Part shown: piece after piece, positions 18,488 through 64,000 of the stretch | Layout: each line of letters opens with the position of its first letter | Position numbering within the stretch: position 1 is the stretch's first letter | Assembly: GCF_030684315.1 (NCBI RefSeq) | Contig: NC_081384.1 | Coordinates: 18,700,818-18,764,817, forward strand | DNA length: 64,000 bases | From: Stegostoma tigrinum | Lineage: Eukaryota | Direction: 5' to 3' | The notes under the pieces: generated by a model | What the model saw: the letters and a program-made list of their open reading frames with translations, nothing else | Databases searched by the model: none | Told to the model about the DNA's origin: nothing | Made by a program: the position numbers and the translations under genes

Positions 18488-18759
18488 ATAGAGTCATAGA
18501 GTCATAGAGTCATAGAGTCATAGAGTCATAGAGTCATAGAGTCATAGAGCCATAGAGTCATAGAGCCATAGAGCCATAGAGCCATAGAGCCATAGAGCCA
18601 TAGAGCCATAGAGCCATAGAGCCATAGAGCCATAGAGCCATAGAGCCATAGAGCCATAGAGCCATAGAGCCATAGAGCCATAGAGCCATAGAGCCATAGA
18701 GCCATAGAGCCATAGAGCCATAGAGCCATAGAGCCATAGAGCCATAGAGCCATAGAGCC
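18488..18759. repeat. 8-bp tandem repeat (atagagtc)n -> (atagagcc)n, ~34 units; expanded CR1 3' tail
   Basis: Seen directly. It is the reverse complement of the (gactctat)n tail that ends other CR1 copies here (4012-4027, 46262-46280). Confidence 0.95.
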
Positions 18760-21214: not shown

Positions 21215-21575
21215 GTGGGCAGTGAGTCCCTGATAAGTGCAGGCAGTGAGCCCTAATCAGTGCGGGCAGTGAGTGCCAGAGCAGCGGGGACAATGAGTGC
21301 CAGAGCAGCGCAGGCAGTGAGTCCCGGATCAGTGCGGGCAGTGAGTCCTGGAACAGCATGGGCAGTGAGTCCCAGAGCAGTGCTGGAAGTGAGAACGAGA
21401 GCAGCACGGGCAGTGAGTCCCAGAGCTGTGCACTCAGTGAGTCCAAGAGCAGTGTGGGCAGTGAGACCCAGAACAGCACGGGCAATGACCAGTGCAGGCA
21501 GTGGGTCCCGGAGTAGCATGGGCAGTGAGTCCTGGAGCAGTGTGGGCAGTGAGTCCCAGTGCGGTGCAGGCAGCA
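21215..21575. repeat. GC-rich minisatellite, ~24-bp unit (gcagtgagtcccagagcagtgcgg-like), ~15 degenerate copies
   Basis: Seen directly. It produces the periodic AVSPRA/LWDSLP ORFs in the track. Confidence 0.9.
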
Positions 21576-29403: not shown

Positions 29404-29575
29404 CTTGCTTGAGGATTTTGTTCCTGGCACCTCTGTTCAGTACCAAATGTTGAGGAGGTTTTCTGACATCAGCAGCAAAAGGGTTTGCACTTGCACTGAG
29501 AAACAAATAGACTGAAATAACCAGAAGAAAAAGAAAGATGAGAAACAGAAAGAGCAACATACTGATGGAAACCAT
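29404..29575 (-). CDS. RETSAT: RETSAT-like all-trans-retinol 13,14-reductase, coding exon 1 (172 bp)
   Basis: ATG at 29575. Encodes a hydrophobic signal/anchor MVSISMLLFLFLIFLFLLVISVYLF followed by SANPFAADVRKPPQHLVLNRGARNKILKQG, typical of the RETSAT N-terminus. Donor AAG CAA G|gtatgt, phase 1. Confidence 0.93.
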
Positions 29576-37640: not shown

Positions 37641-40600
37641 ACTCCATTTGATTTAGACCCTTTCCCATTTCCCTGGCTCTCCCTCAGCTTTGAGGCTTGC
37701 ATTGCCCTTAACGGATTTTACCTGTAAATACATCAATTAGAAATGCAGGTGATTTTCTGAATGTGGTTAATAGATGAAAAAAAAATCTGTGGGAATTTGG
37801 TGAGGGGAACAAAAACATTCAGTTGTTTGTAAGAGCTCTTCTGGATAAAGAAAAAAGAAAACTAAAGTGCATGGGGGGGTGTTTGACACTTTTGTGGTAG
37901 TGTAGTGGCAGTGTCCCCAGTCTTTGAGCCATGAATGCCTCAGTTCAAATCCCACCCGATCTAGAGGCATATACTGAACAGGTTGAATAGGAAAATATGT
38001 AAAAATATGTTAGAAGCATATGACCATTAGAAATAAACACCATTTAACAGTACAAACTACTGTGACTCAATCTTACCAGAAGTTGATGAAGTGTCAGTTT
38101 TGTCAAGTTTCATAAGTTGGTATCTCACTGAGGAGGCTAGTGAATTTCACCAATGATTGTCCCAAACCTGCCTCAGTAGACAACTACCATGGCCCCTCAC
38201 TAGCATAATTCTCCAACTTACTCCTACCAAAGGTACCCACAAGGTCTCTTCATACAGTCCAAGGAGAGAATTTTGGCCCTGGTAGGCATTGAGTCAGACC
38301 CCTTGTGAGAATACATAAACCTCCACATTCTTTTGCCAATCAAGCATTATTATGCTACCTTCCCATTTCCCCCACTGTGAATGTCCTCCCCTTGATTGGA
38401 ACACTTTCTTTCTTTTGCCTTCTGTGGGTACAAGCTACAAGTTGACAGCCTCTGTTCTCAACAGGGCAGCTGCTCAAGACATTCTGCCTTCCTCCTCGAA
38501 TAAAGAGAGCACAGATGCCTCAGAAGAACAGCTGGCTGGGCTTGCTCTTCATTCACCCACCAGCACTGTTAAGAACATTTGAGAAATGTGGATATTCTGA
38601 CAAGAGGAGGTTGTTATGTTGATACCTAGGTCTCTATTTTTGGCAAAACTACTCTGCAGTACTTCTGTTTAACTCCAGCCTGTCTCTCTCCTCATTTGCT
38701 GTGCAAATACTTTCGTGATCGGTAATTCTTCTCAAGTCAATCCATGTCAATGACACCATCATATGTACAGGACTGGTTGTACACGTGAGTAAAATTATTA
38801 GCCTTCCATTAACATACTTTCAGAAATGTATTTATTTTTAGGAAACTATTTCCACTCAGCATGTGTGATTGGAAAGGATTATCGGTACTTTATGAGTTTG
38901 ATTACAAATAAGTCAGAATTTTCTATTCCAGCTTGGACCATTGGGCCATTCCATCTTAGATCATCTCATGCAGCATTATTCATTTACAAAAGCAAGAAAT
39001 AAACATTATTAGCAATTACCAATGTGACAAAGATTATATGTTTGAACATAGGGCTTGCAGATTGACAAAGTAAACATGACCAATTTCTGCTAGCACTAAT
39101 TATGATAAAAATGTTACCATAAACCACAGGATTTACAGATCAATATCTTAAAATTTTCTTGTTTACTTGAAATGTCAGCATTATTTGTCAACAAACTGTC
39201 ATGCTTGTCCAATCAGGCTTGAACTTTCTAAACATGTTAAAAAAGACTGTACAAATGATCAATTTTAATGTGACACATTAGAACAAATTGACAAAACAAT
39301 TAAAGGCTATATATCTTCAAAGTGTTTCATCTGTGTTGCATATTGCTTGTAACATCAAATCACAGAATCATCTCAGTTTCTCTACACAATGATATACAAT
39401 TATATCGGTAATGTTCCCAACATTGTCAAAGTAGAGCAATATTCTTGATCAGCATTTCCTTTTGAAAATATTCATGATATTCATTGCAGCAGTTTCTCAG
39501 TTATTGGGAGAGAGGAATATCCTCTGCTCATGGAAACAGACCAAACTTCATATTCCTTTTGAATCATATTAGACCATAAAAATCGGAATCAGTAATTTAG
39601 CCTCTCAAGTCTGCTCCACCATTCAATGAGATCAGAATTGCCATTTGAAAAAGACACTTCCAAACCTCTATCACCCTTTCACATAGACGTTTTTCCTTAC
39701 CTCTCTCCTGAAAGGACCTGCTTTGAATATTTAGGCTCAATGCCCCAGTTCTGGATTCCCAAACCAGGAGAAATCATTTTCTTTGCTAATCGGTTCCCCA
39801 TAATATCTCCAATGAAATCTCCTTTGAAACTTCTAATTTCCAAATTCAAGACTTATGACCCTAACTTGTTTAGTCCTGCCGTTTAATACAACCCTTGTGT
39901 GTCCAGATGGAGTTCTAGTAAATCTACTTTGCACTCCCTCAAAAGCTAACATACTGTGCATAAAGTTGGTGCCACCCTGTCTCAGAAACACAGTGTCCAA
40001 CTGAGGCTTTGCATAGCTGCAGCACAAAGAAAAACCTCTTGTGTTCTAGCTTTGAGTTATTAAGGCTAGTGCTATTCTGAGACCATCATTCAATGGGCAT
40101 ATCAGTTTATGATTAGATGCTTTGCTGTACAGGGCATGGTATTCCTGCCTTGAAGTCAGAAGCTCTGGGTTAAAATTCAATCTGAAGACTTGAAGGCCAA
40201 TGATGGTGTATTCACAATGTGGCCGGAAAAGTTGAAGATGACCCTGTAACGTCTTTCAATACTTCAAAAAGAAAGTTAACAAAATTGGGAGTGAATTCTC
40301 TTCAGCATTTGCTCAGGCCAAGTCTCACACAGGGACTTAATGACCAAAAGGAAGTTGGATTGTAATGGAGCATGAAAGATTTTGTACCAATCTGCAAGAC
40401 GTTCCAGTGGCAGGCAATAAAAGCAGGCAAGATTCCTGTTCCGCCATATTATGGAAGGAAAATTACCATCTCCATGTCATGATACTTGACTCTGGGCTAC
40501 AGTATATCTTGAAAAGTGTGTTCCCATAACAATACTCACTCTTGGATAATGTTATTTTTTCGGGGTGGAGAGAGAGAACGGATTATCTCAGTTGGTGAGG

Positions 40601-41443
40601 ATCAAAGCAGTCCCAATACCACAATGCTTGATCCCAATCCTGCTTGGGGTGGAGTCAGGTCATGAGCTTACTCCTACTGAGTGTTGGAGATTGTCGCAAC
40701 ATGAGACAGACATATCTTCAGTCAAAAAAATTGAAAAAGAGCAGGCAAACAATCTGCTGTGCCAGTTTTCCATTGAATTGATGAAGGTGAGATAAATTTT
40801 TGAAGGAGTAATTTGTGTGAGGCTGTAGGGTTTGGATAATGAAGAAAGTATATTCTCCAACATTATCTCTCTTTATTTCAGATTAGCAGCACCTGCAGTC
40901 TTTTGCCTTGATATTGATAAATGCCAAGATCTGAAATATTGTTTCTATCTTAAAAGATGGAGGTTCCTAGACTGTTACTCTGGATGTATTTTCTTCTTGT
41001 TAGTGACAGTGAGATAATGGTAGCCTTGTAGAAAATAATAAAGGAAACCGCAGAATCAAATTTACAGAGTGTTCCTTGAAGAGACAATCCTATACAGATG
41101 TTTTCGATTGTTAATTCCACTGCTGTACTGTCTAGCCAGATACGACCTGTATATTATGAACTGCTTCAGTCCTACCCATTAACCAACTCCAGCAACATAA
41201 CTGTTACTAACTGAATTATATTATGCAGCGGCTTTGACAAAACAAAGACAAGAATATTTTCAATAAATTTCAAAGTATATTTTTGGACACGTTGATTTCT
41301 GAACTTAACTCCACTTATTCTCCACGATCTCAATTTGCTTGGGCTGTTTAGTTAATTTCCTTTCCATATCAAGTTGAATTAAACTCAAGAGACATCAAAT
41401 GAACAAGCTTTCAAGAATAGAGGATATGTAGCTAATGGACCAA

Positions 41444-42511
41444 TTATGAATCATTTTTGTGCAGAAGAGGTGAGAGATCCGCAGGAATTCCAATCCATTG
41501 AGGTAAGAAAGCAGCCTCATATTTAAACACTTTTAGAAAAGGAGACTCAGGTAAAGTAAAGTTTGTGAGATAAATTGTCTCCCCACCTGCCAAGTAGCCA
41601 GCCCAGAAACCAAACGTTCCAATTGTCATTATTGTGTGGTTACAATGTGCAAGAATAGAAAAGTCAAAAGCCACAGTGGCCTGCTTTGGATCATCTGAAA
41701 AGTAAACATCTCCTTTGGAGTTATTAATGTTTTGCTTACACCAGTCCATTCCATTGCTTGTCACTGCAAAAACCACATTTTTGTATTTATTTCTGAAGTA
41801 GGCCATTGCTGTGTCTAAATATTTCTTATCAGCTATAACTCCTTTCCAAACATTTGGCATGACATGGACATAATCTCCCCTTCGAACATGAACACCAACA
41901 TAAGTCACATTCTTTCGCTCACCTCTAATGCGTCTGAGGAATATATCAGTCTGTTCTACGATAAAATCATGCAAAGTAAACTCACGAAGAATTTCTGACC
42001 GGATGTGATGGTAGAAAGTCCAGGAACATGGGTATCCTGAGAGCCGGACATAATCTCCTTCTATACTACGGTACGTATCCTCCATCCAGTCATGGAGTGG
42101 ATAATTCTTCCATTTTATTGCCTTTATCACACTGTCATGGAGGGTTGGAAGAGTAATTTTGAAGATAGGGGCCAGGTAATTGGCCATGGAAGGTAAAATA
42201 TATGCCTGATGGCCATTCAATTTTGCCAATGCATATAGTGTTGCATACTCCCCCATCTGGTTGCCAAGTCGTCCAATGGAGTTAATTGTCCAAAATCCCT
42301 TTGAAGAAATCATCGCCTGTGCAGAGCCATTTTCTGTTCCAAATTCCAATGAAGTGGTTGCATTTTTAAAAGGTTGGAAATAATTGGAAATTAGGCCATA
42401 TTTTAACTGATATTTATATATGACAGAAACTGTCATTATGAAAAGAAACAAAGATGTAAAGGCCAGCACTTTCACGACTGGACAAGCACAAGCTTTCATC
42501 AAATGAACCAT
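41444..42511 (-). CDS. FUT2: Galactoside alpha-(1,2)-fucosyltransferase, GT11 family (FUT1/FUT2/SEC1-like), 355 aa, single coding exon
   Basis: Intact ORF with an N-terminal TM anchor (type II Golgi protein). Motifs GRLGNQMGEYATL, GYPCSWTFYHH, YVGVHVRRGDY (GDP-fucose binding), CNHTIMTIGTFGFWAGYLAGG and EAAFLPQWIGIPADLSPL. Exact orthology among FUT1/FUT2/SEC1 cannot be fixed by eye. Confidence 0.95.
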   Translation of the reverse strand: MVHLMKACACPVVKVLAFTSLFLFIMTVSVIYKYQLKYGLISNYFQPFKNATTSLEFGTENGSAQAMISSKGFWTINSIGRLGNQMGEYATLYALAKLNGHQAYILPSMANYLAPIFKITLPTLHDSVIKAIKWKNYPLHDWMEDTYRSIEGDYVRLSGYPCSWTFYHHIRSEILREFTLHDFIVEQTDIFLRRIRGERKNVTYVGVHVRRGDYVHVMPNVWKGVIADKKYLDTAMAYFRNKYKNVVFAVTSNGMDWCKQNINNSKGDVYFSDDPKQATVAFDFSILAHCNHTIMTIGTFGFWAGYLAGGETIYLTNFTLPESPFLKVFKYEAAFLPQWIGIPADLSPLLHKNDS

Positions 42512-43959
42512 ATCCAGAGTCTCTTCACCTTATGATTAGAAGTTCACGATTTCCTGAAGTGGAGTTTCTGAAAATCCAGAAATTGCTTGTTAATATTACA
42601 ACAATGATGAAGGATAAGTTTCGAAATATTGCTGTAGGATTATTTATTTTGCAAAGGCCCTCTTGAGAAATGAGTATGATGCATTTTTGATAAAACAGAG
42701 GGCATAACAACTTAGTGCAAATGGATATAAAGTAACAAGATAGATATGGGACAAAAATGTAGCTTCACAGTTGGCATGTGGAGACTTGGGGAGAACCATT
42801 TAATTGTTAGATGTTACAGGCCTTACACTGTTTCAGGTTTGATTAATTTGATAACAGAGACTTTCTATTGAACGGAATCAGTTTTCTCCTCTATTTGCTG
42901 AAAGGTGAAGAGCAAGAAGTAAGCAAATGTACCATCCAGTGGAGGGTTTTCCAATGGAGAACATGGCTTTGTGCCTTTAATGGTCCCTCTACAGGTGTAG
43001 AGTAATGAACAGAAGTGATAGTGTCATGGCAAGAGCTCCCACTTTGTTGATGCCTCACTCGACCAAGAAATTAGTTACAGCGAATGCTTTCTATCTTGAC
43101 AGCACCCATGAAGCTTATACCTTTGCACCAGCTTTTCTTACAAGCAACCTTCAGGCCTCCTTTTTATATACTCATAGAAGCTTTTAGTGTGGGATTTTGT
43201 ATTTCTTGATCAGTTCATCTCATTTTCCAAATTCTCCTTTTTTTAAATTTACCCATTGCTGATTTTTAACATGTTTCTGATGTCCTGACTATGTATGAAA
43301 CTTTGCGGTGTTATTCATCTTCTCTTTCAATTTAATACCATCCTCAATTACTTTCTTTACCCCCAAATGGTGTAACCATTTTGTTGAATGCAAGTTTCTC
43401 AAAGGAATTGACAGTTTTGAAATAGCTTCTGAAATGTCTACCATCACTTCTCTGTCTTGGTTTCTATTTTGCCTGTCAACTGGTAAACCAAATTCCAAGG
43501 GGATGATCGAACATCCATGTTCAGCTAAAGCAGTCAGGAAAGCATCAGCTTTAAAGAAAAAAATACCATATGTTTTGTGCAACGATGACTGGAAGGGCAA
43601 GTGACTTGTCAGAATATAAAGGACAGCAGAGAATGGCTGAAAGGTTACTGTGGACTAATAAATTCGAGCATGAGGGAAAGCTCGCTGAAACCAGATAGCA
43701 GGAGTTTCCATGGATAGCAGAAAGCAAAAGTACAAGCAAAGTGAGTTTTGGTCATTTTGAGGGTGAGATTCGTGAGTTGGTAATTGAGTTTAAAGAAGTA
43801 GCAGATTGACTGAATAAATATTTTTGCTTTTTTTTTATTCTAGATAGTGCAAGAAAAAAGTCCAGGAAGAACTGCAAAACAGGAGCTGGAAGAAAGAAAA
43901 CTACATGGTAAAACTGAGAATAGACCCCTTTAAAATCAACAAGGTTATGTGTGTGTGGA

Positions 43960-46280
43960 AACACCATAGATGGGAGAGATACTAAGGGGATATTTCATGT
44001 GAGCATTTACCGTGAAGAAAGAAATGAAGGCTAGTGAGCTTGAGGAAATACGCATTGATCTTTCAAAAATAGTCCACATGAAGAACAGGAGGTGCCTCAG
44101 GTCTTAAAATCTATAACGGTGGATAAATCTTTGGCACCTGATCAAATGTATCCCAAGGTGCTGTGGGAAGCTAGAGAAAAAATTTCAAGGCCCCAAACGG
44201 AGATATTATATTATCTACAGCCATGGTTGAGACACCAGAAGACTGGAAGGTGGCTAATGTTGTGCCTTTGTTTTAGAAAAGCTGCAAGGTGAAATCTGGG
44301 AACAATAGGCTGGTGAATCTGATCTCAGTGGTGGCTAAGTTGTTAGACAGGATTCTGAGAGATAAGTTGTACGTTGCATTTGAAGAGGCAAGGACTGATG
44401 AGGCATAGTCAGCATGGCCTTATGCCTGGGAGATGGCATCTCATGAACTTTATTGAATTTCTTGAAGATATGTCCAAAAATAAAGATGAGGGCATAGGAG
44501 TAGACGTTGTCTACATTGACCTTAATAAAGCCTTTGACATGGTTCCACATGATGGTCTGGTCAGTAAAGAGATAATAGGAACGGCAGTTGCTGGAGAATC
44601 TGAGACAACAAAGTGTAGAAGAAGTTACCCTCTGCCCTCCAGACAAACCTCAGGGGATCTCTCGCCCACTGCAACTCTCTTGTAATGTCTTCGGCCTTGA
44701 AACTGCTCGACCATGTCCTGGAGCAAACCAGGTACTACAGCCACATCACGTTTCTTCGTACCTGCCTATGGAACCAGATCATTCCCAATGGACTACAGTC
44801 CACATTCAAGCCTTCCCAATTTATCCCCAACAGTGGTTTACCATCCCCCCCAGACCTCCCCCTGACTGAGGATGAATGGTCAGTCCTCAGTAAGGGGCTC
44901 ACCTTGGTCCTGCTCCACCCACACATCAACGAATACCGGTCAGGTTTGTTCATTGAGCAGTTTTTCTGCCGCATCCACCTACATATCTTCTCCTCTATCC
45001 ATCTTCGATCTGCCTCCCCCTCTCTCCCTATTTATTTCAGAATCCTCTCCCCCTCTCCCATTTCTGAAGAAGGGTCTAGGCCTGAAACGTCAGCTCTTCT
45101 GCTCCTAAGATGCTGCTTGGCCTGCTGTGTTCATCCAGCTCGACACTTTGTGGTCTGGTCAGTGAAGTTAGGTCACATGGGATTCAGGGAAAGCTTTCTC
45201 ATTGGACACCAAGTTGGCTTGATGGTAGGAGACAGAGTGCAATGGTGGAGCATTGCCTTTTGGGACTTGAGAGCTGTGACCAGCGGTGTTCCACAGGGTC
45301 TGGTGCTGCACCCAATGTTGTTTGTCATTTATATAAGTGGAAGAGAATTTTGGAGGCATGTTTCATAGTACCTGAATGATTAAGTAATGGGTGGTAAAGT
45401 GGACAGTGAAGAAGGTTATCTAATATTGCAAAGAGATCTTGATCCTTTGAGCCAATAGTCTGAGGAGCAGCAGATGGAGTTAAATTCAGATAAATGTGAG
45501 GTATTGCATTTTGGTCAGCAAAAAAGAACAAGATTTGTACATTTAATGACGTAGCCTTGTGTAGTTTTGTCAAACAGAGAGATCTAGGTGTTCAGGTACA
45601 TAGTTCTTTGAAAGTTGCATCACAGGTAGACAGGGTGGTGAAGTAGCCAATGAGCACGCTTGCCTTCATTGTTCAGATCATTGAGTATAGGAGTCGGGAC
45701 GTCATGTTGATGTTGTACAGAGCGTCGATGGGGCCACTTCTGGAATACTGTGTACAGTTCTCATCACCCTGCTAGAGGAAGGGTTTTCTTAAACTGGAGA
45801 GGTTTCAGACAGATTTGTTGGGATATGTGCCAAGAATGGAGGTTTTTAGTTATAAGGAGAGGCGAAATAGACTGGAACTTTTTCCACAGGGGCTTTAGGC
45901 ATTGATGTGTGATCTTATAAAAGTTTATAAATCATGAGGGCTATAGATAACATGATTAGTCAAGGCCAGTAACTCAGTGTGGTGAGTTCAATACGAGAGG
46001 GCGTATTTTTAAGGTGAGAGGAGGAAATATAAAGGGGACATTAGGGGAAACTTTTGCACACAGAGGGTTGTTTATGTGTGGAATGACTGCCAGAGATAAT
46101 GGTAGATGTGGGTAAAATTACAACATTTCAAAGACATTTGGGCAGGTACATGAATGGGAAAGGTTTAGAGGGATAAGGGCTAAATGCAGGAAAGTGGGAC
46201 GAGTTTAGTTTAGGAAACTTGGTCGGTGTGGATGAGTTGGATCAAACAGTCTGTTCCTCTGCTCTATGACTCTGTGACTC
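43960..46280 (+). mobile_element. CR1/HER1-like LINE, disrupted, containing a nested Penelope insert
   Basis: Encodes MRHSQHGL...VDVVYIDLNKAFDMVPHDGL and VTSGVPQGLVL.PMLFVIYI. 3' tail ctctatgactctgtgactct. Confidence 0.88.
44570..45150 (+). mobile_element. Internally deleted Penelope-like element with inverted terminal piece, nested in a CR1 LINE
   Basis: 17-bp TSD tggtctggtcagt(a/g)aag at 44553-44569 and 45151-45167. Hammerhead core CTGAAGA-AGGGTCTAGGCCT-GAAACGTC at 45064-45091. Confidence 0.78.
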
Positions 46281-46289
46281 TGCATCTAT

Positions 46290-47680
46290 AAATTAATGGA
46301 GTTGCGGGTTGATAATTCACCAGGTCCAGATTGACTTCATCCAGTGTCTTAAAAGCAATGGTTAATGAGGTCATACATGCTTTTGGGTTGATTTTATTAA
46401 ATTCTTTAGATTCAGACATGATTCATTAAGAGTGAATGTAGCAAACATAAACTTCCTGTTCAAGAAGGAGGGCGGCAGAAAGCAGGAAACTACAGGCCAG
46501 TTAGCCGATGTCTTTGGTGGGGAAAGTGCTAGATTTGCTCATTAAAAGCTCACTGGAAAAGCTGAAGCAATCAGGAAGAATCTTCATGTGTGAAAGGAAT
46601 ATTGTGTTTCACCAATTGTGAGTCTTTGCAACAGTGACAAGCACTGTGAATAAAAGCAAGCTGTCAGATAAGCCATACTTAGATTTCCAGAGAGCACTGG
46701 ACACAGTGCTCCATGAGAGATTATTGTGGAGAGTTGGAGCTCATAGTGTGGGGAGTAACATAGCAGTAAAGATGGAAGATTGGTTGACTGGCAGGAAATA
46801 AAGTGCATTTGTAAGTGAGTCTTTCTGATTAGCAATGCAATGAGTGGAGTCCTATAGGGATCTATGTAGGCACTCAAACCTTTTACAATACATTGGATTG
46901 GCTTAGACGAGTAGATGAAAGGGATGACAGTAAATTTGCTGATTACACAGATGAGATCAGAAAGTGTGTTATGAAGATAACAAAGTAAGTACTGACACAG
47001 ATAGGTTAAACGAGCGAGCATAAATCTGTCCGACTGAGTATAGGGAGGGCTAACGAGAAGTTGTTCACTGTTGCAGGAGGAATGGAAAAACAGAATATTA
47101 AATAAATGGAAATTGACTTCAGTATTCTAAACTGAAGAGGTGTTTACATGTTCTAGTTCCTGAATCACAAAATGCTAATGTGCAGATAAAGCGAGTGATC
47201 AAGAAAACTAATAGAATGCTATACTTTATTGCAAGAAGTATTGGACAGCAATGTTAAGGTGTTGATCTTCAGTGAGACAGAGCATTGCTGACAGTACATC
47301 CCAAATACTCTATTTTTATTCTTCTTTTGTAACAAAGCACTTAAATGCCAAAAAGGTAATTCAGAGACTCTTTACCAGGTTGGTACTTGGAATAGCAGCT
47401 CTCTTACGGGCAAACATTAAACAGCTTGTGCTTCTTCTCTTTCTGGAGTTTAAAAGAGCGAAACATTTCGTCTTGTCAGTGAGTACAGAGCTAGAGGGCA
47501 CTGTTTTGAAATAAGGGGTCACTCGTTCTCGACATTGACAAGAGGCATTTCTTTTCCAGAAGGCTGTGGGACCGTGGAAATCTTGACCTCAGAAAGTGGA
47601 GGAAACAAGGCCAGTGAAGATTTTTAAAGCCATGGTTGGTACATTATTGCTCAGTAAGTGAATCAAAGACTGTTTAATCA
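46290..47680 (+). mobile_element. Old degenerate CR1-clade LINE remnant
   Basis: Recognisable pieces ggaaactacaggccagttagcc (GNYRPVS) and aaatttgctgat (KFAD), with many stops. Confidence 0.6.
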
Positions 47681-48387
47681 TCCAGGAAAATTGGGCGGGT
47701 CCCATTAACTTCCTGTCTTGACCCTTGTAGGCAGTGGACAGGTTCTGTAGAGTCACGAGATAGGTTATTCACTGTAGTTTTGCTAGGTCACTAATCTCCT
47801 CTTGTCGCCGCTGTATACATCCAGTTCAGTTTCTGGTCGATGGTATCCTCCAATTGTTGATAGTGGGAGTTCAGTGATGTTAACATCATTGAATGTTAAA
47901 GGATGGTAGTTGGATTATCACATATTGCAGACAGTCTTTGCCTGGCATTTTTATGGCATGAATATTACATTTTACTTTTCCAAATCCGAATATTGTCCAG
48001 ATCAATTTACAGGGTGACCCTGACTGCTTCAGAATTTGAAGAGTCGTGAATGATGTTGAACATTGTACAATCATTCGTAAATGTTCTCACTTCTGACTTT
48101 ATGATGATGAAGCTCCTGAAGATGGATAGATTGAGGCCATACACTGAAGAAGTACTGAAGCAATGGCCGAGGGCTGAGATGACTGATCTCCAACAGCCAC
48201 GACCCTCTTCCTACATGCCAGGTTGTCTGCAACCAGTGGAGATTTTCCCCTGATTCCCATTTTGCTGGGGTTCTTTGGTGGTACTTTCAGTCAAATGTAG
48301 CCTTAATGTCAATGGTAATCACTGTCACTCCCTCTCTGGAATCCAGCTCTTTTGTCCATGTTTGAATCAACACTGTAATGAGGTCAG

Positions 48388-48658
48388 AGATAATAAGAAC
48401 TGCTGATTCTGGAGTCAGAGATAACACGGTATGGAGCTGGAAGGACATTTTCATTTTCTGAAAGAACAAGGTGTGGAGCTGGATGAACATACCAGGCCAG
48501 GCAGCGTCAGAAGAGCAGGAAAGATGACATTTCAGGTCTGGACCCTTCTTCAGAAATTCATTTTATGAAGGAGGGTCCCAACCCGAAACATCAACTTTCC
48601 TGCTCCTCTGATGATACCTGACCTGCTGTGTTCCTCCAGCTCTACACTGTGTTATCTA
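48388..48658. mobile_element. Fold-back Penelope-derived element
   Basis: 14-bp TSD tgtaatgaggtcag at 48374-48387 and 48659-48672. Inverted arms enclose two opposed, partly degenerate hammerhead cores (~48525-48595). Confidence 0.78.
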
Positions 48659-50886
48659 TGTAATGAGGTCAGGTTTTGAGAGACGCTGGATAAACCCAAA
48701 CTGGGCATCACTGAGCAGGTTATTGCTGAGCAGGTGCTGCTTGAAAGCAATCCTAAACTGTGCTCCTAACTCATGCCTCCACCTTTTAACTCTCCGGTCT
48801 CGTGATCTGTGACTCTCTCTCTTGGAACCATGATGTCTCTGCTTCAGGACCACACTTCTCATGTGAAAGGTCAGATAGTATCTCTACTCTCACTGCACCA
48901 AATTCCTTCACTTACCAAATTCCCTGATTGAGGCACTCGGTGTCACTGCTTGTATTCTTCAGCTTTGTGCCACGTGCTTGCTGTTAAAACATTCCAATAC
49001 ACAAATGATTCCACTGACAAGATAAAGCTGTACTTATGCTCTGAAGAACCTCAGGAACAAAATTAATTGAAACTGCAAGCGTTAGATTTGTTCATGGACA
49101 GTAATACCATGACATGACATGTTTACAACGTCAATGCTAAATTGTTTGAAAATTGATGGGGGTGATGCTAAATTCTCAAAATTCTTTTATTCATTCACAG
49201 GATGAAGGAATCAAAAGCCAAGTCAGCATTTATTGCCTATCCCTAACGGCCCAGGGGGCATGGTGTAGGAGTCACATGTAGGCCAGATCAGTTCAGGATG
49301 GCACTTTCATTCCCTGAAGGACACAAATGAACCAGATGGGTTCTTCTGACAATCTATTCATGGTCATCATAAAGCTCTTAATTCCAGATTTCTATTGAAT
49401 TCAAATTCCAACATTCAGCCACAGTGGAGATTTGAAACTTGGTCCCTAGAACACTGCCCTCCCTAAAGATTATAAATAAGTCAAATAGGATTTTACAGCC
49501 ATCAACAGTGATTACATGACCTCTTCAAGGCCAGCTTTTTAAGCCCACAGCCAACACATTTTCACCTACATATGACCCCCATTGTCAGCTTTTCTTCTTT
49601 ACTGGCTTACCGAATACCCAGCCCCTTGTCTGCCTAACTGCCTTTCACTATCTCTGGGCTCCGACTCCATCTATCTGCTCACTCCTTCCCAACTTTACAC
49701 ACCACCCCACCTTCAGCAAATATACTAATCTCATCCTAGTTCTGAAGAAAGGTCACTGAACACAAATACTAACTCTGCCTTCTCTCCACAAATGCTGCCA
49801 GACCTGCTGAGTTTCTCCAGCAATTTCTGTTCTTACCACAGATTTTGAGCATCTGTAGTTCTTTGTGCCCAGGACATTAGACTGTGTCTCTGGAATACCA
49901 ACACAATGACAGTACCACTATGCCATGCCTTTTTCAATACCAACATTATGAATTGGCCCTGGAGCAATACATTGAGCTGGCAGCTTTCCGCTCTCTTAAT
50001 GGGACCATGTGGCTGGATCTTCATCAGTTTTACTGAAGTGGTTCAGTAAGGTAATTCACCACCAGTTTCTCCAGGGCAATTAGGGTTAGACATTAAATGC
50101 TGACTGTAATGGTCACATCTCATGAATAAAAAAATCTAAAGCTGAAAGAGTGAGAACGAAAGTCAATCTCTACAATCCTAAAATGAGTAAAGTTAAAGCA
50201 CTTGAACTCAAGACTGCAACATTGGTTCAGGACCATAGACTTCTCATTCAGTAACAGTATACCCAGCTCCCATTCCAGTTAGTGTCAGGATTCAATTGGA
50301 TGGGCGCAGAATTCTTGAACTGAAAAACATGATGGAAAACATTTCTCTCCCTTTTTCAACAGAAGCTGGAAATACATATCTCTAGACATATGACTATCCA
50401 TCAATAGGAAGCCTTCAGGAAAGGAAGGGAGAAATTGGCCCATGCTTTCTTTTGTAAAAAAATAACAGCCCAATATTATAAGAAGATTCTAAATGTAAGT
50501 CAGGCTAATGAATATTTAAAATGGACTGGAACAGGAAACATGATTTTAATAATGATTTGTAATAATGGGTTTACTTATTTGATGTCACAGAGTGCAGAAT
50601 CTGATTTTTATTGCAGGTCAAATTCCAAAATCTAATGATAAACGTTAACATTTGTCACATTGTAAAACTGCAAATTGGTAGTAATCGTAATAACTGCAGA
50701 ATGGCAAAAACAACATAGATGTTGAAGAAAGCACAGGAAAGTCTCAAGGCAGAATACATTGTTAGCAACAGGTAGAAATCTATCTGTCACAGTAAGGAAG
50801 GTATGACAGATATGAAAACGTTCACAGAGTTAAGGAGGAACTGAATTCTCAGAAAATATACCTATAGCCAATGTGAGAAAGAACAG

Positions 50887-52480
50887 TGATAATGGGAACT
50901 GCAGATGCTGGATAATCCAAGATAATAAAATGTGAGGCTGGATGAACACAGCAGGGCCAGCAGCATCTCAGGAGCACAAAAGCTGACGTTTCAGGCCTAG
51001 ACCCTTCATCAGAGAGGGGGATGGTTTGAGGATTCTGGAATAAATAGGGAGAGAGGGGGAGGCAGACCGAAGATGGAGAGAAAAGAAGATAGGTGGAGAG
51101 GAGAGTATAGGTGGGGTGGGAGGGAGGGGATAGGTCAGTCCAGGGAAGACAGACAGGTCAAGGAGGTGGGATGAGGTCAGTAGGTAGGAGATGGAGGTGC
51201 GGCTTGGGGTGGGAGGAAGGGACGGGTGAGAGGAAGAACAGGTTAGGGAGGCAGAGACAGGTTGGACTGGTTATGGGATGCAGTGGGTGGAGGGGAAGAG
51301 GGTGGTTGTGTGGTGCAGTGGGGGGAGGGGACGAACTGGGCTGGTTTTGGGATGCGGTGGGGGAAGTGGAGATTTTGAAGCTGGTGAAGTCCACATTGAT
51401 ACCATTGGGCTGCAGAGTTCCCAAGCGGAATATGAGTTGCTGTTCCTGCAACCTTCGGGTGGCATCATTGTGGCACTGCGCGAGGCCCATGATGGACATG
51501 TCATCTAAAGAATGGGAGCGTGAGTGGAAATGGTTTGCGACTGGGAGGTGCAGTTGTTTATTGCGAACCGAGCAGAGGTGTTCTGCAAAGCGGTCCCCAA
51601 GCCTCCGCTTGGTTTCCCCAATGTAGAGGAAGCCACACAGGGTACAGTGGATGCAGTATACCACATTGGCAGATGTGCAGGTGAACCTCTGCTTAATGTG
51701 GAAAATCATCTTGGGGCCTGGGATAGGGATGAGGGAGGAGGTGTGGGGGCAAGTGTCGCATTTCCTGCAGTTGCAGGGGAAGGTGCTGGGTGTGGTGGGG
51801 TTGGAGGGCAGTGTGGAGCGAACAAGGGAGTCACGGAGAGAGTGGTCTCTCCGGAAAGCAGACAGGGGTGGGGATGGAAAAATGTCTTGGGTGGTGGGGT
51901 CGGATTGTAGATGGCGGAAGTGTCGGAGGATGATGCGTTGTATCTGGAGGTTGGTGGGGTGGTGTATGAGAACGAGGGGGATCCTCTTTGGGCAGTTGTG
52001 GCGGGGGCGGGGTGTGAGGGATGTGTTGTGGGAAATGTGGGAGACACGGTCAAGGGCGTTCTCGACCACTGTGGGGGGAATGTTGCGGTCCTTGAAGAAC
52101 TCGGATATCTGGGATGTGCGGGAGTGGAATGCCTCATCGTGGGAGCAGATGTGGCGGAGGCGGAGGAATTGGGAATAGGGGATGGAATTTTTGCAGGACG
52201 GTGGGTGGGAGGAGGTGTATTCTAGGTAGCTGTGGGAGTTGATGGGCTTGAAATGGACATCATTTACAAGCTGGTTGCCTGAGATGGAGACTGAGAGATC
52301 TAGGAAGGTGAGGGATGTGCTGGAGATGGCCCAGGTGAACTGAAGGTTGGGGTGGAAGGTGTTGGTGAAGTGGATGAACTGTTTGAGCTCCTCTGGGGAG
52401 CAAGAGGTGGTGCCGATATAGTCATCAATGTAACGGAGGAAGTGGTGGGGTTTGGGGCCTGTGTAGGTGCGGAAGAGGGA
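50887..52480 (-). mobile_element. 5'-truncated Penelope-like retroelement (RT C-terminal half + GIY-YIG endonuclease), young
   Basis: Frame is open from 52480 to 51158: LRYIDD RT motif, FLDL, and GIY-YIG NVVYCIHCTLCGFLYIGETKRRLGDRFAEH. 9-bp TSD aaagaacag at 50878-50886 and 52481-52489. The empty site is in copy A at ~28005. Confidence 0.93.
50983..51014 (-). ncRNA. Minimal hammerhead ribozyme motif in the 3' terminal region of the young Penelope element
   Basis: Minus strand reads CT-CTGATGA-A-GGGTCTAGGCCT-GAAAC-GTC-AG, with palindromic AC/GT stem III as described for PLE hammerheads. Confidence 0.65.
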
Positions 52481-53111
52481 AAAGAACAGGATCTTTTTCT
52501 AACCACGAAAGAACTTCACAGTGGAAACCTGCCTGACTTGATTTTATAGAATTGTAACTGCAAAGAGAAACCTAGTGGTAATGCTGCAGTGGAAACCCAG
52601 AAGATTAAACACAGACCTGTGCAGACTATGGGAGTCTCTGCAAGATGGGAGATGCAAAGTTCATAGTAAAACATCATTTACTCTTGGTACAGAACCCCAG
52701 AACCAATTTTAGTAAACAGAGATTGAAATAAGGAGCTGTGAAATTAGCAGTGACTTGGGTACTGGTATGTACACATTAATCCCTTTAGATGATGTACCAT
52801 TGCTGAGGTCCTGAATTCTCAGGCCATCCTTTGGGTCTTATTAAGTAGAGGAATAAGCATAAAAGGTTGTGGCGTGCTAGATTTTACTATAAACGTAAAG
52901 AGATTATGGAGATGTTGCACATAATTCATGATCCCTATAATTCTTCATTAAATGTAACTTTTTATCTAACTGTAGGCATCCTTCAGGTAGTGGACAATGT
53001 AGACACGTCAGTCTTTCTATTGAGACCACACTCAATCGTTTTCAACCCGAAGTCCACCCGTTTTCTCTCTTCTCAGAATTGTTAATTCTGATTACTGGCC
53101 ACCTAATCAGA

Positions 53112-53445
53112 GAGCTGATGGCCTAGTAGTCTTATTGCTGGACTATTAATCCAGAGCTTCAGGGCAATTGCTTGGAGATCCAGGGTCAAATCCTGCCTTG
53201 TCAGATGGTGACATTTGAAATTCAATTTTAAAATATCTTGAATTAAGATTCTGATGATAATCGTAAAACCATTGTCAATTGGCAGGACTAACCCATTGGG
53301 CCCTTTGGGGAAGGAAATTGCCTTCCTTACCTGCTCTGGCCTACATGTGACTCCAGACCCACAGCAAAGTGGTTGACCCTTAAGTGCCCTCTGGGCAATA
53401 AATGTTGTCCTGGCCAGTGACACTCATATTCAATGAATGAATAAG
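53112..53445 (+). mobile_element. SacSINE1-like DeuSINE (head replaced in the copy A paralogue, ~28710-28955)
   Basis: gagctgatggcctagtag...gggtcaaatcc head; ggaaggaaattgccttccttacctgctctggcctacatgtgactccagacccacagca core; tail gggcaataaatg...atgaatga. Confidence 0.75.
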
Positions 53446-53891
53446 GCCTGAGGCCTCAATCCCAACCCCAAAGACTGGACTTCCCTGTTTCAGAGGGGGT
53501 TAGATTCAGTTCTACAGTAAGTAATGAATGCAACAACTGAAGGGTAAAGACAGCTGAGACAGAAATGTATTGGCCACTTCTCACATTGTTGAGACCCATA
53601 TTTGACATTACCGATTAAAACCAGTTGAGTTCTGATCATATTTGCTCGCGTGTTACAGCCAGCTTTATCTTACATATATTTATCAATCAAAGTTGTTAAA
53701 ACTATTGAGGAACAATTCAACCTGCCAAATTGTTTTAAGCATCAATTATGTAATGTTTTTGAATGTTGAAATGTCATAGTTCAGCCACAATTGTGGCACA
53801 AACTTACTTTTGTTAAAGCTCTGTACTCTGTGTCATGAACTCGCATGTGCTTGAGCATATGGAAGATGAGAATCAAAGTTAAATGACATAC

Positions 53892-54060
53892 CTTGCTTGA
53901 GGATTTTGCTCCTGGCACCTCTGTTCAGTACCAAATGTTGAGGAGGTTTTCTGACATCAGCAGCAAAAGGGTTTGCACTTGCACTGAGAAACAAATAGAC
54001 TGAAATAACCAGAAGAAAAAGAAAGATGAGGAACAGAAAGCAGCACGCTCATGAAACCAA
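53892..54060 (-). pseudogene. RETSAT: Duplicated, disabled copy of RETSAT-like exon 1
   Basis: Near-identical to 29404-29575 over its 3' part, with the G|gtatgt donor intact. The start ATG is now TTG and small deletions near the 5' end give TTG GTT TCA TGA (stop) in the RETSAT frame. No exon 2 copy lies downstream of it within the duplicate. Confidence 0.88.
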
Positions 54061-57000
54061 ATACTCACGACAGAGCAGCACGGAGTCAAAGTCAAACAAA
54101 AATCATGAGTAAGGGCCAGACAAAAGGAGATAAGAACAGAGAGTAAAAGCAGAGTCTCACACACCCTTCTTTTACAATCTGCAAATGAGAATCCTAAACA
54201 AACAAAACTTTTTAGATCATTTTAATGTTATTCCTTCTTTGCCGAAGGCTATAACATCGCCGCACGGCTTGAAAGCAACTGGTGATTTCTGGAGAAAATT
54301 GTTTGTATTATTGTCAACAATTCGAATGAACCAGGACTCAAATGCTGCCACTTTTTTTTATGCAGGAGTTGTTGGTAATGATTCTGCTGCTTATTCCACA
54401 GCCTTTATATTCATTTTTTGTTTTTTTACCATCCCTCAACTGTCATACAATCTCTCTTGCCTTCCATCTGCAGACCTTCCCGAGTGTTCTTTTCTTGTTG
54501 TCCACTTTCAGTGCCTTTGTACTTACTTAGAAACAGGTCTATCTTCAACTTTTCTTACGCCCAGTGAAAGGCCAATGTCCTTTACAACCCCACAGACCTT
54601 GCCGAGTCTGCTGAGTGTTTCAGCATCTCCCACTTTAATTTCATTGAGATATGTGACTCCAGTTCCGTAATCATTGTAATGGAGTGTGACTTGATGGTCC
54701 AGCTGTTCATTGCATCTCCCTTCTGGAGTCCTTCAATATCACTGGTGCTGGGGCTAACTGTGAAAAGCTGATCTGCAAAGACAACATTGAACTGCACTTT
54801 CCAGGTGGAGGATTCAGTTTTAATTTGTTTTGTATTGCCATTAAAGGGATAGTAACAGTCTCAAACTGAGGCCAGGAATTAGTTTTACTGCCCCTTTAAC
54901 TTTGGCAGCCAAACCCATTGTGTTAAGAGCCTGCTGATGTGACAGCTGTGATCTGCTGCTACAATATGATGCAATGTAGTATTCTTGATCTGGAAGTAAT
55001 TGTTTTTGTCCTTATTAATATATCTCTTTAGCTCTTGCAATCAGTCGTCAGCACAGAGGTGGGCTTTTTATCCGTTTACAGAGGGTATTTGTACCTAATA
55101 AAGTGATGTCTGTGTTAGGCCTCATGACATAGAGCCTAAGTCTTCTTCCCAGGGTGGGGAGAGTTCCAAACCGAGAGGGCATGGGGTTAAGGTGAACGAG
55201 CAACGGTTTAAAAAGGACCTGAGGGCTATCTTTTTCATGCTGAGTGTGGAGTGTCGATGAAACAAGCTGCCAGAGGAAGTGTTGGAGGTGGGTACAATTG
55301 CAACATTTAAAAGGCATCTGGAAGTGTATATGAATTGTAAGGATTTAGAAGGATTATAGGCCAAATACTGCCAAATGGGATGAGGTGAGATTGGGATGTC
55401 TGGTTGATGCAGATGTCTTCGACTGAAGCATGTGGCTCCGTATCATTTGTCTCTATGACTCGAATGAAATAGCTTCAACCTAGGACTGAAGGATTCAGTG
55501 GATTTTTATTGCAAAACCTGGTATCTACTGCGTCCAGGGTCAAGTTGAGGAATCCAAATGTAAATTGTTGCACAGACCCCTCAGTGTGTCATGCTGCAAG
55601 AGCACTCAGTGAGACGGAGGCTGAGGCCTTTATACCATCAGGTAACATCTTGTGATATAGTGATGATATCATGACCATGTACGTTAAAGGTATTTTGCAT
55701 ACAAGTTGAGACAGAACACAATATTGCCTTTGGCTACCCGAAATTCCAACTTGTTTAAGGAAATTGGGTCTTTTAACGTGGAACTCATGCTCAACTATGT
55801 AAAGAGGGCTCTGATTGTGCTCCTTGGTGCTCGGGTGGCTCAGCCACACCCCCTCACACCCTGCTTCCTGTCACAATTCAATTCCATTCTGCCAGTTTCT
55901 CCAACTGCATCACTTCTGCTCTGATTATACCACATTCCACTGAGCAGCCCTTGACAATGTTTTTCCGCAATCAAGGATTTACTCCATTGTGATTGACAGG
56001 GCTTTCAGATGGATCTGACTTATCTCCCCCATTTCTGCCCCACATTCCTTCCTCTTCCTTTCAAACTGATACTAAATTTAATGCAGAGAAATATGAAGTG
56101 CTAGATTTTAGCTGGAGGAATGAGAAAAGGTGAAATACAGCACTGAAAACCAACAACAGCTCAGCTACGTCCCTGTCTGGGAAGGCTCGTTTCACCTCTT
56201 TTGGAACTCTCCACTATCCTAGATGTCAGTCTATGCCGGAGGCAATGAATGCTATAAAGGGCTGTGAGCTCCAGCATAATTGCTAAAACAAGGAAGACTT
56301 GTGCGCCAGTACTCCAGATGCACCCCTGGACAACTTATTCCAGTTCAGCTACAACACTGGCGTCTACCCAACATCATGGAGAATTGTCCTGGTACTTCCT
56401 GTACAGAAAAAAAGTGAGACAAATACAACCTGATTAATTGCTGCCTCACACCCTTCTGGTCTTATGCATCATTAAAGTGGTGGAAGGGATCAACAAGAAC
56501 TTTAAGGCAGCTCTTTCTTAGCAATGACCTGCTTCGTGACACTCCCTTTAGACTCTTTCACTCAGCTACGGACATTTTTTTTATAGAGTTGTTTCAAAGG
56601 AGTTGAACAAAAACGAAGTTGCTGGAAAAGCCCAGCAGGTCTGGCAGTATCAGTGAAGCAAGAAACAGAATTAACATTTCGGGTCCGATGACCCTTCCTC
56701 AGAAAGGAGTTGAACCTCCAGGGGTGATGTGGATGTGACTGCCCTTCACATCATGCCACTTTTAACCAAGTGTGGCATCAAGGGACCTACCAAATTGACA
56801 ATCAATAGGATTCAGAGCTCTGCTGCCATGAAATTGTGAGAACTAAATCCCAACCAATTGTTCAGAGGTGCTGGGCTTCGTCGGGTGCACCGAGGGTCAT
56901 GGTGTACGTGTGTGTATTTTTCGCTGATTTGTGGATGCGCAGCTCAAAGGTTATGCTGGTGTTCAGGACCCAATCCAGTCCACAGCATCTCGCCCCCATG

Positions 57001-60000
57001 CCAGCAAACTCACCACATGCTGAGCAGAAGATTTAGCTCTTGACTTTCTCAACAGAAGCATTAGGTGTCCATTGGTCAGCTTCCTGAGCAGATGTGGGGA
57101 TAACAATGTACGACTATCCCACACCTGATAAATGGAATGTTAGCAACCTGCCAACTGATACGACAGCTCATGTTGTGGTTCCATGGTCAGTATACTATGG
57201 GAGCACGCAGGAAAACAAGGGCACCGTAAGGTCGGCACCAAGTGAAAGCGCAACATTAAGTAATTTGTCTTTGCTTACACAATTGGATGTGTTCAATAAT
57301 GAATTAAGTGCAATTTCTTGCAGGATTCACACCATGAGGAGTACATGACATAACTTTACAAATAAATAGGTAAGTGACGTATATCAGAGCAGTAGTGTGA
57401 AAGGATGATGTTCAATAGAGCTCGAGTCTTCGCAAGCACTGACTCTCAATGTCTCTCTCTCCCCTCTTCTTTCTTTCCATGCAGGGCTCTCCTCATCACA
57501 GCCCCTGCTATATTTCTGAGTCTTACAGACCTCGATGCACGGCAACCGAAGGCCTGATACTTCCTGAGGCCTTTGTGCGCAGCAAGTGACCAAAACCTCT
57601 GTCCTCACTCAAGATGTCTTAACAGTTACAGCTGAGACCAAAAATACTCCAAAATACACCAAAACCACTCCATACAAACCGGAGTAGAAGTTAGTCTTTC
57701 ATGACCTAGGAACATAGGAACATAAATAGGCCATTCAAACCGAAACTTACCTGTGTCTGGGGGCTAGTTAATGGAGTGAGGATAGAGTTCTGCCCTCATG
57801 CAGTTGAAGCCATGTTCTGAAGCTGAACAATCGCTGAATGTAATGAAGGGACCTGTGTGTCCCCTGTTGGGACTACATGTCAAATTAAGCAGGCCAGATA
57901 GAACATAGAACAGTACAGCACAGGAACAGGTCTTTCGGCCCATGACGTTGTGTTGAGCATGATGCCAAATGAAACTAATCCCCTCTGCCTGTCCTTGGTC
58001 ACTATCCCTCCGCTCATGTGCTCATACCAAAGTCTCTTAAATGCCCCTATTGTATCTGAAAGCCTACGGGAACTGGTTTTCCCCGGCAGTCTCCCATCCA
58101 TGTCGTACCCAGGCCTGAGTCTGCTTCACCTCCCAGGTTCGATGAGATTGGACATTTTCGGACTAATTGGCATGGGCAGGTGGCTTTTCTCCCCGAAATC
58201 ATAGAATCTCTACAGTATGGAAGCTGGCCATTCAGCCCCTCTAATCCACACTGACCTTCTGAAGACCGTCCTACCCAGAACTAGCTACCCTACCTTCCTT
58301 CTACAATCCTGCATTTCCCCATGGCCAATTCAGCTACTTTGCACATCTTTGGACTTTGGGAGCAAACTGGAGCATCTGGAGGAAACCCGCACAGACACGG
58401 GGAGAATGGATAAACTCCACAAAAACAGTTGTCCGAGGGTGGAATCAAACCGGTGTCCCTGGCATGGTGTTTGATATTATAACACCCATGAAGCATTCAA
58501 CATGTTGCACTCAGCATGGAATATAGCACAAGTGACACTGGGAAGTATGAGGTATGGAGGTCCATTGATTCCTGTAGTATTGGCTCCACTGGCAAAACTG
58601 AATAGAATCTCTAACCCAATGTGTTTCTCAGAAGCAAAAATTCTTAAATCACACTATAAATAAATTGAAAGAAATCAGCAGAATGTTATAAATCAATGCT
58701 GGAGAAATTATACATTTGAACAAAATGATTGGCATATTTAAATGATTTTTTTTAAACAAGCCATTTGCAGGAATGATTTCCACAGCAGTTGTGCTGGTAT
58801 TTCAATAGCGCAATTAATAAGACAAAATACATGGAATTCAGAAGGTTTTTCTCCACACAGAGACTGGTAAGAGTGAAACTTGCACCACTGCTGGGAATGG
58901 CTGATCCAATACACATGTACTTAAGAGAAACAAAGATACATATCTGAGTGAGATGGGAATAAAATGTTACACTGGTGAATTTAATGAGAAAATACATTTG
59001 AATATACAGCACAGAAACTGGCCTATGGAACCCAATCTAATCTTCTCTTTCATTGTTAGATGATCCCTGAAATTTTGTTTGATCCTTCAAATAAATCAAA
59101 TATCAACAACTGTGTTTCAGTATTGAGAAGTCCTGACAGACAGATTACTTCACATTTGATTACCTCAGTTCATGGTGTGATTTATGCATTGACAACTCCC
59201 ATGCATTCAACTCATTGTTAACTGTTACCTATTTGCCAGCCAGCAAAAGCCAAATAAACTTATATACTGTATATTGCAAGAAATATCAATAATTGTCAGA
59301 TTTATAACTTCAAATCTTCATTGGCTTTTTAACACGTGCTTTTTCTGTACTTCTCTTATTTTGTAGAGATTTACGAAGTAAAAGACAAGTGAATCTTAAT
59401 TTTCTATGCCATGATACACTCCAGATATCTGACTGGGTTCTTTAAATATCTATTGTCTTCGAATAATTTCACTGTCATTTCTTATTCCAAGTTATGACGG
59501 TTAGGTTTGATTCAGTTGGTAACACATTTGTCTCTGAGTTGAAATCTCATGGTGTCAAATGTCAATCATCAGAGTTTTGAGCACACGATCAAGGCAAGAT
59601 TCATGGATGGTGCACTGGTGGAACTGGAGGAGGTATAAATAAATCTTTATACCAAGGTACATGCACTCCTCATGTGTAACATTATTGAAAGAACCCAAGC
59701 TCTCTCAGATTGCTAACCAGCATTATTTTCTCAGGAAACATTGCTGGATTCATTGTTGGCTGAAGCCTATGCAATGCAAATTAGCTACTACGTTTAACTA
59801 ATTAAATATAGAACATACTAAACTCAGTCTGCAGGCTTTGATGATAAAACATAACACTGAATTAAACTCTGGGCTCCTTTTCCATCATAACTGGATGGTG
59901 GGTGCTAATTGCAGGTTTTATTCTCCACTAGATATTAAATTATTTGCCCTAATTTGTACATGCATGGTCTAGAGTGAAGGTGCTGCAATATGAAATCACC

Positions 60001-63000: not shown

Positions 63001-64000
63001 GGCTTCCTCTTCATTCACCCACCAGCACTGTTAAGAACATTTGAGAAACGTGGATATTCTGACAAGAGGAGGTTGTTATGTTGATACCTCGGTTTCTATT
63101 TTTGGCAAAACTACTCTGCAGTACTTCTGTTAAACTCCAGCCTGTCACTCTCTTTATTTGTTGTGCAAATACTCGCGTGATCAGTAATTCTTCTCAAGTC
63201 AATCCATGTCAATGACACCATCATATGTACAGGACTGGTTGTACACATGAGTAAAATTATTAGCATCCATTAACATACTTTCAGAAATGTATTTATTTTT
63301 AGGAAACTATTTTCTCTCAGCATGTGTGATTGGAAAGGGTTATCGGTACATTATGAGTTTGATTACAAATAAGTCAGAATTTTCTATTCCAGCTTGGACC
63401 ATTGGACCATTCCATCTTAGATCATCTCATGCAGCATTATTCATTTACAAAAGCAAGAAATAAACATTATTAGAAATTACCAATGTGACAAAGATTATAT
63501 GTTTGAACATAGGGCTTGCAGTTTGACAAACTAAATGTGAACAATTTCTGCTAGCACTAATTATGATAAAAATGTTACCATAAACCACAGGATTTACAGA
63601 TCAATATCTTAAATTTTCCTTGTTTACTTGAAACGTCAGCATTATTTGTCAACAAACTGTCATGCTTGTCCAATCAGGCTTGAACGTTCGAAACATGTTA
63701 AAAAAGGATATACAAATGATCAATTTTAATGAGACACATTAGAACAAATTGACAAAACAATTAAAGGCTATATATCTTCAAAGTGTTTCATCTGTGTTGC
63801 ATATTGCTTGTAACATCAAATCACAAAATCATCTCAGTTTCTCCACACAATGATATACAAATATATAGGTAACGTTCCCAACATTGTCAAAGTGGAGCAA
63901 TATTCTTGATCAGCATTTCCCTTTGAAAATATTCATGATATTCATTGCAGCAGTTTTTCAGTTATTGGGTGAGAGGAATATCCTCTGCTCATGGAAACAG

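Follow-up and report, generated by a model that had tools for sequence, protein, structure and literature searches.

Tandem triplication interleaves FUT2-like genes with copies of RETSAT exon 1 in Stegostoma tigrinum and may have turned orphan exons into splice linkers

A 64,000-nucleotide stretch of the shark Stegostoma tigrinum genome (RefSeq assembly GCF_030684315.1, contig NC_081384.1, forward-strand positions 18,700,818 to 18,764,817; referred to here as the window) contains part of a tandem array in which three intact FUT2-like (GT11) open reading frames (ORFs), F1 to F3, are interleaved with three copies of RETSAT exon 1, A to C. An initial annotation of the window proposed that copy B, which has lost its start codon, acts as a captured promoter and 5' untranslated exon for the FUT gene downstream. 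We analyzed the array and found that an annotated FUT isoform does use an orphan copy of RETSAT exon 1, and that it uses it as an internal exon. Our tentative reading, to which we assign a probability of about 0.45, is that the orphan copies are incidental linker exons in run-on transcripts from an upstream FUT promoter and not selected captured promoters.

RETSAT exon 1 and a FUT2-like gene are triplicated in tandem

Coordinates above 64000 refer to the window extended along its contig (G000:C41; window position 1 = 18700818). A genome search and self-BLAST of the extended region identified the three FUT ORFs and the three exon-1 copies, which in the direction of transcription are ordered F3, C, F2, B, F1, A. 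The remaining RETSAT exons follow copy A and were mapped one by one down to about -11200 in window numbering. Repeat unit 1 (25887-49457, minus strand), delimited by self-BLAST and junction alignment, comprises a portion of RETSAT intron 1, copy A of exon 1 together with ~10 kb lying upstream of it, and F1 with 6.9 kb of upstream sequence. By self-BLAST, unit 2 (minus strand) runs from 49458 to 64000 and on to ~74005 in the extension, where it holds F2, and unit 3 (extended ~74004-96314) holds copy C and F3. Units 1 and 2 meet at junction J1 (49450-49465), where alignment shows a join between FUT upstream sequence and RETSAT intron 1, with ~3 nt of microhomology; the breakpoints lie within RETSAT intron 1 and upstream of FUT. 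J2 is unlike J1 in that some FUT upstream sequence (~1.8 kb) and some intron sequence (0.9 kb) are missing from it. Allele sharing among the units is mosaic and switches along their length, as expected from conversion or unequal exchange. Duplication has placed the upstream region and exon 1 of a donor gene, RETSAT, upstream of a recipient FUT gene on the same strand. The initial annotation had recognized this copying of RETSAT exon 1 upstream of FUT; the event is a triplication that reaches beyond the window.

The adjacency of FUT and RETSAT looks ancestral. In Chiloscyllium punctatum their locus tags are adjacent, and so are their accessions in Hemiscyllium, for which three FUT entries are on record.

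F1 (41444-42511, minus strand), the FUT coding ORF downstream of copy B on the same strand, consists of one uninterrupted 355-amino-acid frame that matches PF01531 at 356 bits (cut-off, 23.9), with a hydrophobic stretch, judged by eye, near residues 12-31 that fits an N-terminal anchor, and an internal donor after 41923. Its C terminus is 4 amino acids shorter than those of F2 and F3. The near-identical ORFs at the locus are 100, 97, and 96% identical to F1 in the genome search, and the shark FUT copies share 96-97% protein identity. Judged from their sequences, F1 to F3 form a recent, lineage-level array, FUT2-like by similarity. The internal FUT donor, the cryptic acceptor in exon 1, and the FUT acceptor are intact in all three units.

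Exon 1 copy A (29404-29575, minus strand) is intact, with Met1 at 29575, Met6 at 29560 (the RefSeq start of RETSAT), a donor after 29404, and a cryptic internal acceptor at 29511. Copy C (extended 75454-75610) keeps Met6 and a frame that is open to the donor; it has a few amino acid changes, and no RETSAT exon 2 lies nearby.

An annotated isoform uses orphan copy C as an internal exon

RefSeq isoforms X1 and X2 match F3 and the F2 protein, respectively, with 0 mismatches each. Isoform X3 (XP_059494765.1; 242 amino acids) consists of F3 residues 1-197, the copy C exon-1 peptide, and ten further residues. Among all combinations of nearby GT and AG sites, X3 was rebuilt exactly only by joining F3 donor 90450 to cryptic acceptor 75561 in copy C, and C donor 75454 to an acceptor of the sequence ttttcag/AAACTC. 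Three identical copies of this acceptor exist (42567, 67036, and 91094), giving three solutions that differ only in the final FUT copy; the nearest downstream is F2, which we infer to be the last exon of X3. These isoform models presumably rest on RNA reads. In X3, the orphan exon is entered by its cryptic acceptor from the upstream FUT gene and is not a first exon. Splicing of an orphan RETSAT donor to a FUT exon, as initially proposed, is thus found in the annotation. It involves copy C, however, which lies outside the window and serves as an internal exon, and it uses a 42567-type acceptor.

The exact rebuild of X3 and isoforms from catshark place the likely true acceptor of F1 at 42567, so that the 5' untranslated part of the FUT exon spans 42512-42567 (minus strand). 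This site lies 39 nt upstream of the AG proposed earlier, at 42528, and is the only acceptor type tied to an annotated protein. The AG at 42528 is indeed present inside the untranslated part, at a distance of 17 nt from the ATG that would suit the frame of a phase-1 donor, but the annotated protein uses the 42567 type. Two catshark isoforms part 17 codons before the FUT methionine, and a white shark isoform has an ETP peptide at the matching place; a native acceptor at a distance of 50-56 nt from the ATG fits these isoforms better than one at 17 nt.

A RETSAT frame that enters at 42567 or 67036 stops after 10 codons, 24 nt before the FUT ATG, and there is therefore no fusion protein to avoid, even with Met6 intact. 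Copy C, for which the splice is annotated, still has Met6. These findings lend no support to the suggestion that copy B lost its ATG in order to avoid a fusion. A RETSAT-FUT fusion is possible only with copy C and a 42528-type AG (417 codons), and GT11 is absent from all three proteins that the exon-1 peptide retrieved. The X3 product ends before the HVRRGDY motif, which we take to have a role in donor binding.

Two other uses of the exon copies were considered. The idea that copy C or B serves RETSAT as an alternative first exon was rejected, since the RETSAT cluster has one member, with A-type residues. Among proteins of 30-132 amino acids, there was no candidate for a short product of an upstream ORF (uORF) starting at Met6 of copy C. 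Separately, the FUT donor at 41923 and the cryptic acceptor at 29511 in copy A are compatible with F1 run-on splicing in frame into full RETSAT; no such FUT-stump/RETSAT fusion was present among the three proteins with the exon-1 peptide.

Copy B is de-coded and splice competent

Copy B (53892-54060, minus strand) keeps its donor, G/gtatgt after 53892, as initially described, and an intact cryptic acceptor at 53999. The reported loss of the ATG and of the frame was also confirmed: Met1 is replaced by TTG and Met6 by GTG, and there is a net 2-nt frameshift relative to copy A. In addition, a new out-of-frame ATG has arisen in copy B at 54052; the uORF that it opens has 31 codons and ends at 53957, inside the exon. 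Its three upstream ATGs all have C or T at -3 (weak context), and their stops lie at least 89 nt before the FUT ATG.

No full-length (355-amino-acid) F1 protein was found in the protein collection, where F1 is represented only by a 289-amino-acid model starting at Met67; five of the six other members of the same cluster are also N-terminally short. The short model probably reflects a 5' end without RNA support, an internal acceptor being the alternative, and it argues mildly against an abundant transcript joining B to F1. No joint between 53892 and FUT was seen among the matches listed in four runs of one sample, whose coverage was DNA-like over introns and repeats and hence uninformative on expression.

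Copies A and B were aligned over 14,817 columns (14.8 kb), and similarity was scored as events per 90-column window. The copies differ by 3.7 events per 100 columns overall, and 54% of windows have at most two events. The upstream region of copy B (54061-54410, minus strand) is near-identical to that of A at 54083-54170 and 13% diverged at 54171-54400 (31 events in 233 columns), placing the latter stretch among the unit's most diverged parts. The ~85 bp upstream of the start of copy B differ from A at one or two positions, and the 3' part of the exon is as alike to A as this promoter patch is (1/134). The ~90 bp of similarity reported previously is therefore present, with more diverged flanks, but it is no closer than the background, given that more than half of all windows are as similar. 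A putative TATA-like word at 54409 is present in all three copies. The alignment gives no sign of constraint on the duplicated promoter of B; the outliers are the diverged flanks.

The zone around the lost start codons reaches the joint maximum of the A/B alignment, with 15 events in 50 columns. Changes found only in B number 10 in ~57 columns of this zone (54026-54082) versus 17 in ~230 columns of the neighboring sequence (p about 0.01 by a hand Poisson calculation, uncorrected, for a zone picked post hoc). Constraint on A alone, slowing homogenization, and assembly error are possible sources of this excess. Contigs with the B-specific upstream letters match 54105-54260 with 0 differences. 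The B letters of the ATG zone were in no contig among the matches listed, and since the contigs collapse paralogues, they speak neither for nor against an assembly error. Another genomic donor for the zone was rejected, as genome-wide matches were confined to A and B and exon 1 shows no DNA similarity to a second RETSAT paralogue.

Orphan exons as linkers or captured promoters

The tandem triplication, with a unit extending from inside RETSAT intron 1 through the neighboring FUT2-like exon, has left splice-competent orphan copies of exon 1 before the extra FUT genes. In the reading that we propose, transcription from the native FUT promoter would run on past F3. Unit 3 lacks ~1 kb (the equivalent of 40104-41077), including the AATAAA that stands 553-567 nt behind the F1 and F2 stops; this deletion behind F3, at extended ~89600, would favor run-on. 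The pyrimidine-rich codons of the RETSAT hydrophobic leader would supply a cryptic acceptor, and the orphan exon could thereby be included and joined to the next FUT acceptor. Copy B may do for F1 what copy C does for F2, at a low level; run-on from F2 through B to F1 is probably rarer because F2 keeps its proximal signal. The loss of the ATG in B would then be the decay of an exon that is no longer translated.

The rival reading closest to the initial proposal is true promoter capture, in which the RETSAT promoter of B fires, exon B is joined to 42567, F1 is made in RETSAT tissues, and the exchange of Met6, in good context, for a weak-context ATG eases repression by a uORF. The donor and acceptor that it needs are intact, and the annotation has a junction of this type for copy C. 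With Met6 intact a 62-codon uORF would end 24 nt before the FUT ATG, whereas the uORFs of B stop at least 89 nt before it. Capture by B is possible given that the B donor, cryptic acceptor 53999, and the F1 acceptor are all kept. However, F1 lacks a full-length model even though reads reaching at least 18 nt into B would be distinguishable; the conservation of the promoter patch is ordinary; and copy C is annotated as an internal exon. We regard promoter capture by B as doubtful.

Several points nevertheless weigh against the linker reading. X3 is a computed model, and the splicing of the orphan exon accordingly has annotation-level support. Any X2 variants that begin in copy C would amount to true promoter capture, and such variants may exist. 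With 10 kb of upstream sequence duplicated alongside it, a promoter would be expected to keep some activity. The donor-proximal letters of A and C are identical over 33 nt and B differs only 17 nt before the donor, so that short-overhang reads from a B-to-F1 transcript, or from a back-spliced A, could be mapped as C to F2. Finally, B could be under selection to stay ATG-less, as the surplus of B-only changes in an ATG zone flanked on both sides by near-identical tracts might indicate.

The native FUT promoter and the fate of F1

The next gene upstream of the array has guanylate-kinase-domain exons from about 121 kb extended (3 of 146 frames scanned; L013:6966-7166, L014:4655-4921, and L014:7059-7316, minus strand). 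These exons are probably the end of a MAGUK-type gene, a family label that we infer. The duplicated part upstream of F3 (91.1-96.3 kb) covers ~5 of the ~30 kb to this gene, and the native promoter may accordingly be missing from F1, as promoter capture would have it. A search by tblastn with six N-terminal extensions from other sharks returned nothing credible as a native FUT first exon, no CpG island was found outside retroelements, and comparison with the region upstream of a FUT paralogue on contig C33 gave repeat-type matches and no candidate exon.

Another rival reading is that each unit carries a whole FUT gene, with a native noncoding first exon inside the duplicated 5-7 kb of upstream sequence, so that F1 would have its own promoter and copy B would be an inert passenger. 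Unit 1 does keep the full duplicated upstream block (45466-49458 versus 92326-96314, 94% identity), and all three ORFs are intact. Against it, just one of the 331 GT sites in 42568-49457 reaches a rough donor score of 5, in sequence that the F3 upstream region lacks (a weak test), and F1 has no full-length model. We consider this arrangement unlikely.

It is also conceivable that F1 and B are nearly silent, F1 being a young promoterless duplicate whose ORF survives through gene conversion with F2 and F3. The pN/pS values among the FUT copies, 0.68-2.05, show no significant departure from neutrality, as this would predict, but with 26 changed columns in 1,065 there are too few changes for a powerful test. 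The mosaic sharing of alleles along the units and the short F1 model fit near-silence as well, and gene conversion between paralogous alpha-2-fucosyltransferases is known from mammals (PMC4398370). The intact ORF and the preservation of all splice sites argue the other way, and we judge near-silence quite unlikely.

Comparison with known systems

The closest precedent is ITCH-ASIP, in which a tandem duplication joins noncoding ITCH exons to ASIP coding exons (human, PMC9771800; quail, PMC6466734; sheep, as cited there). As at that locus, a partial tandem duplication in the shark puts a neighbor's promoter and first exon or exons before a gene whose coding part accepts any 5' exon, and this likeness of architecture counts in favor of promoter capture. 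The ITCH exons, as described in those reports, were noncoding from the start, and capture was demonstrated by 5' rapid amplification of cDNA ends and reporter assays. In the shark, the exon was formerly coding, there are three units, and the sole annotated use is internal; the locus is known here from sequence and annotation. The mechanism would thus be of the already known ITCH-ASIP kind, and support for orphan-exon splicing is at the level of annotation, with none for copy B. Among the papers listed in a literature search, none concerned this locus by its title or the opening of its abstract.

Tandem duplications in Drosophila yakuba likewise shuffle exons and regulatory sequence between neighbors to give chimeric genes (PMC5460883). 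Those cases are population variants with RNA sequencing, unlike the shark locus. Among GT11 genes, FUT1, FUT2, and Sec1 have a single coding exon, an untranslated first exon, tandem paralogues, and gene conversion (PMC4398370). The shark copies share the single coding exon and the tandem paralogues, would share the untranslated first exon and conversion, and differ in being interleaved with exon 1 of another gene.

Rabbit Sec1 is described as dominant-negative (PMC4398370), and it provides the model for the most elaborate scenario, a relay in which a native FUT promoter, together with two RETSAT promoters that were captured, would feed the three FUT2-like exons through the orphan exons. The B zone would be kept ATG-less against conversion to allow translation of F1 in liver and gut, and the anchored X3 stump, lacking HVRRGDY, would damp H-antigen synthesis as Sec1 does. 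We regard this relay as improbable.

The skin mucus of other shark species is rich in fucosylated, H-type glycans (PMC10532229), so host-microbe surfaces could be altered when FUT2-like copies gain new promoters or leaders. The three units also form a natural series in which a coding first exon turns into a leader: copy A is intact and coding, copy C is intact but orphaned, and copy B is de-coded.

Other features of the locus

Between units 1 and 2, divergence per 90-column window peaks (up to 25 events) immediately downstream of the FUT 3' end (extended 64250-65150 versus window ~39800-40700). Just upstream of F3, a 325-bp sequence is present as an inverted copy with 94% identity (extended 91584-91908 and 92684-93008), which is absent there in units 1 and 2. 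The unit 2 copy of the RETSAT intron alone contains a retroelement fragment (50700-52480, minus strand) with a 446-amino-acid open frame and no Pfam match; its motif would make it Penelope/GIY-YIG-like. Elsewhere in the genome, a fourth FUT2-like gene with 67% identity is located at G000:C33:15963153-15964031. The second RETSAT paralogue lies ~500 kb away on the opposite strand (G000:C41:18223386-18230180, plus strand), and its exon 1 is more diverged (40% identity). RETSAT intron 2 contains an 8-bp tandem array of 34 copies (18488-18759) and a 24/48-bp minisatellite (21217-21573).

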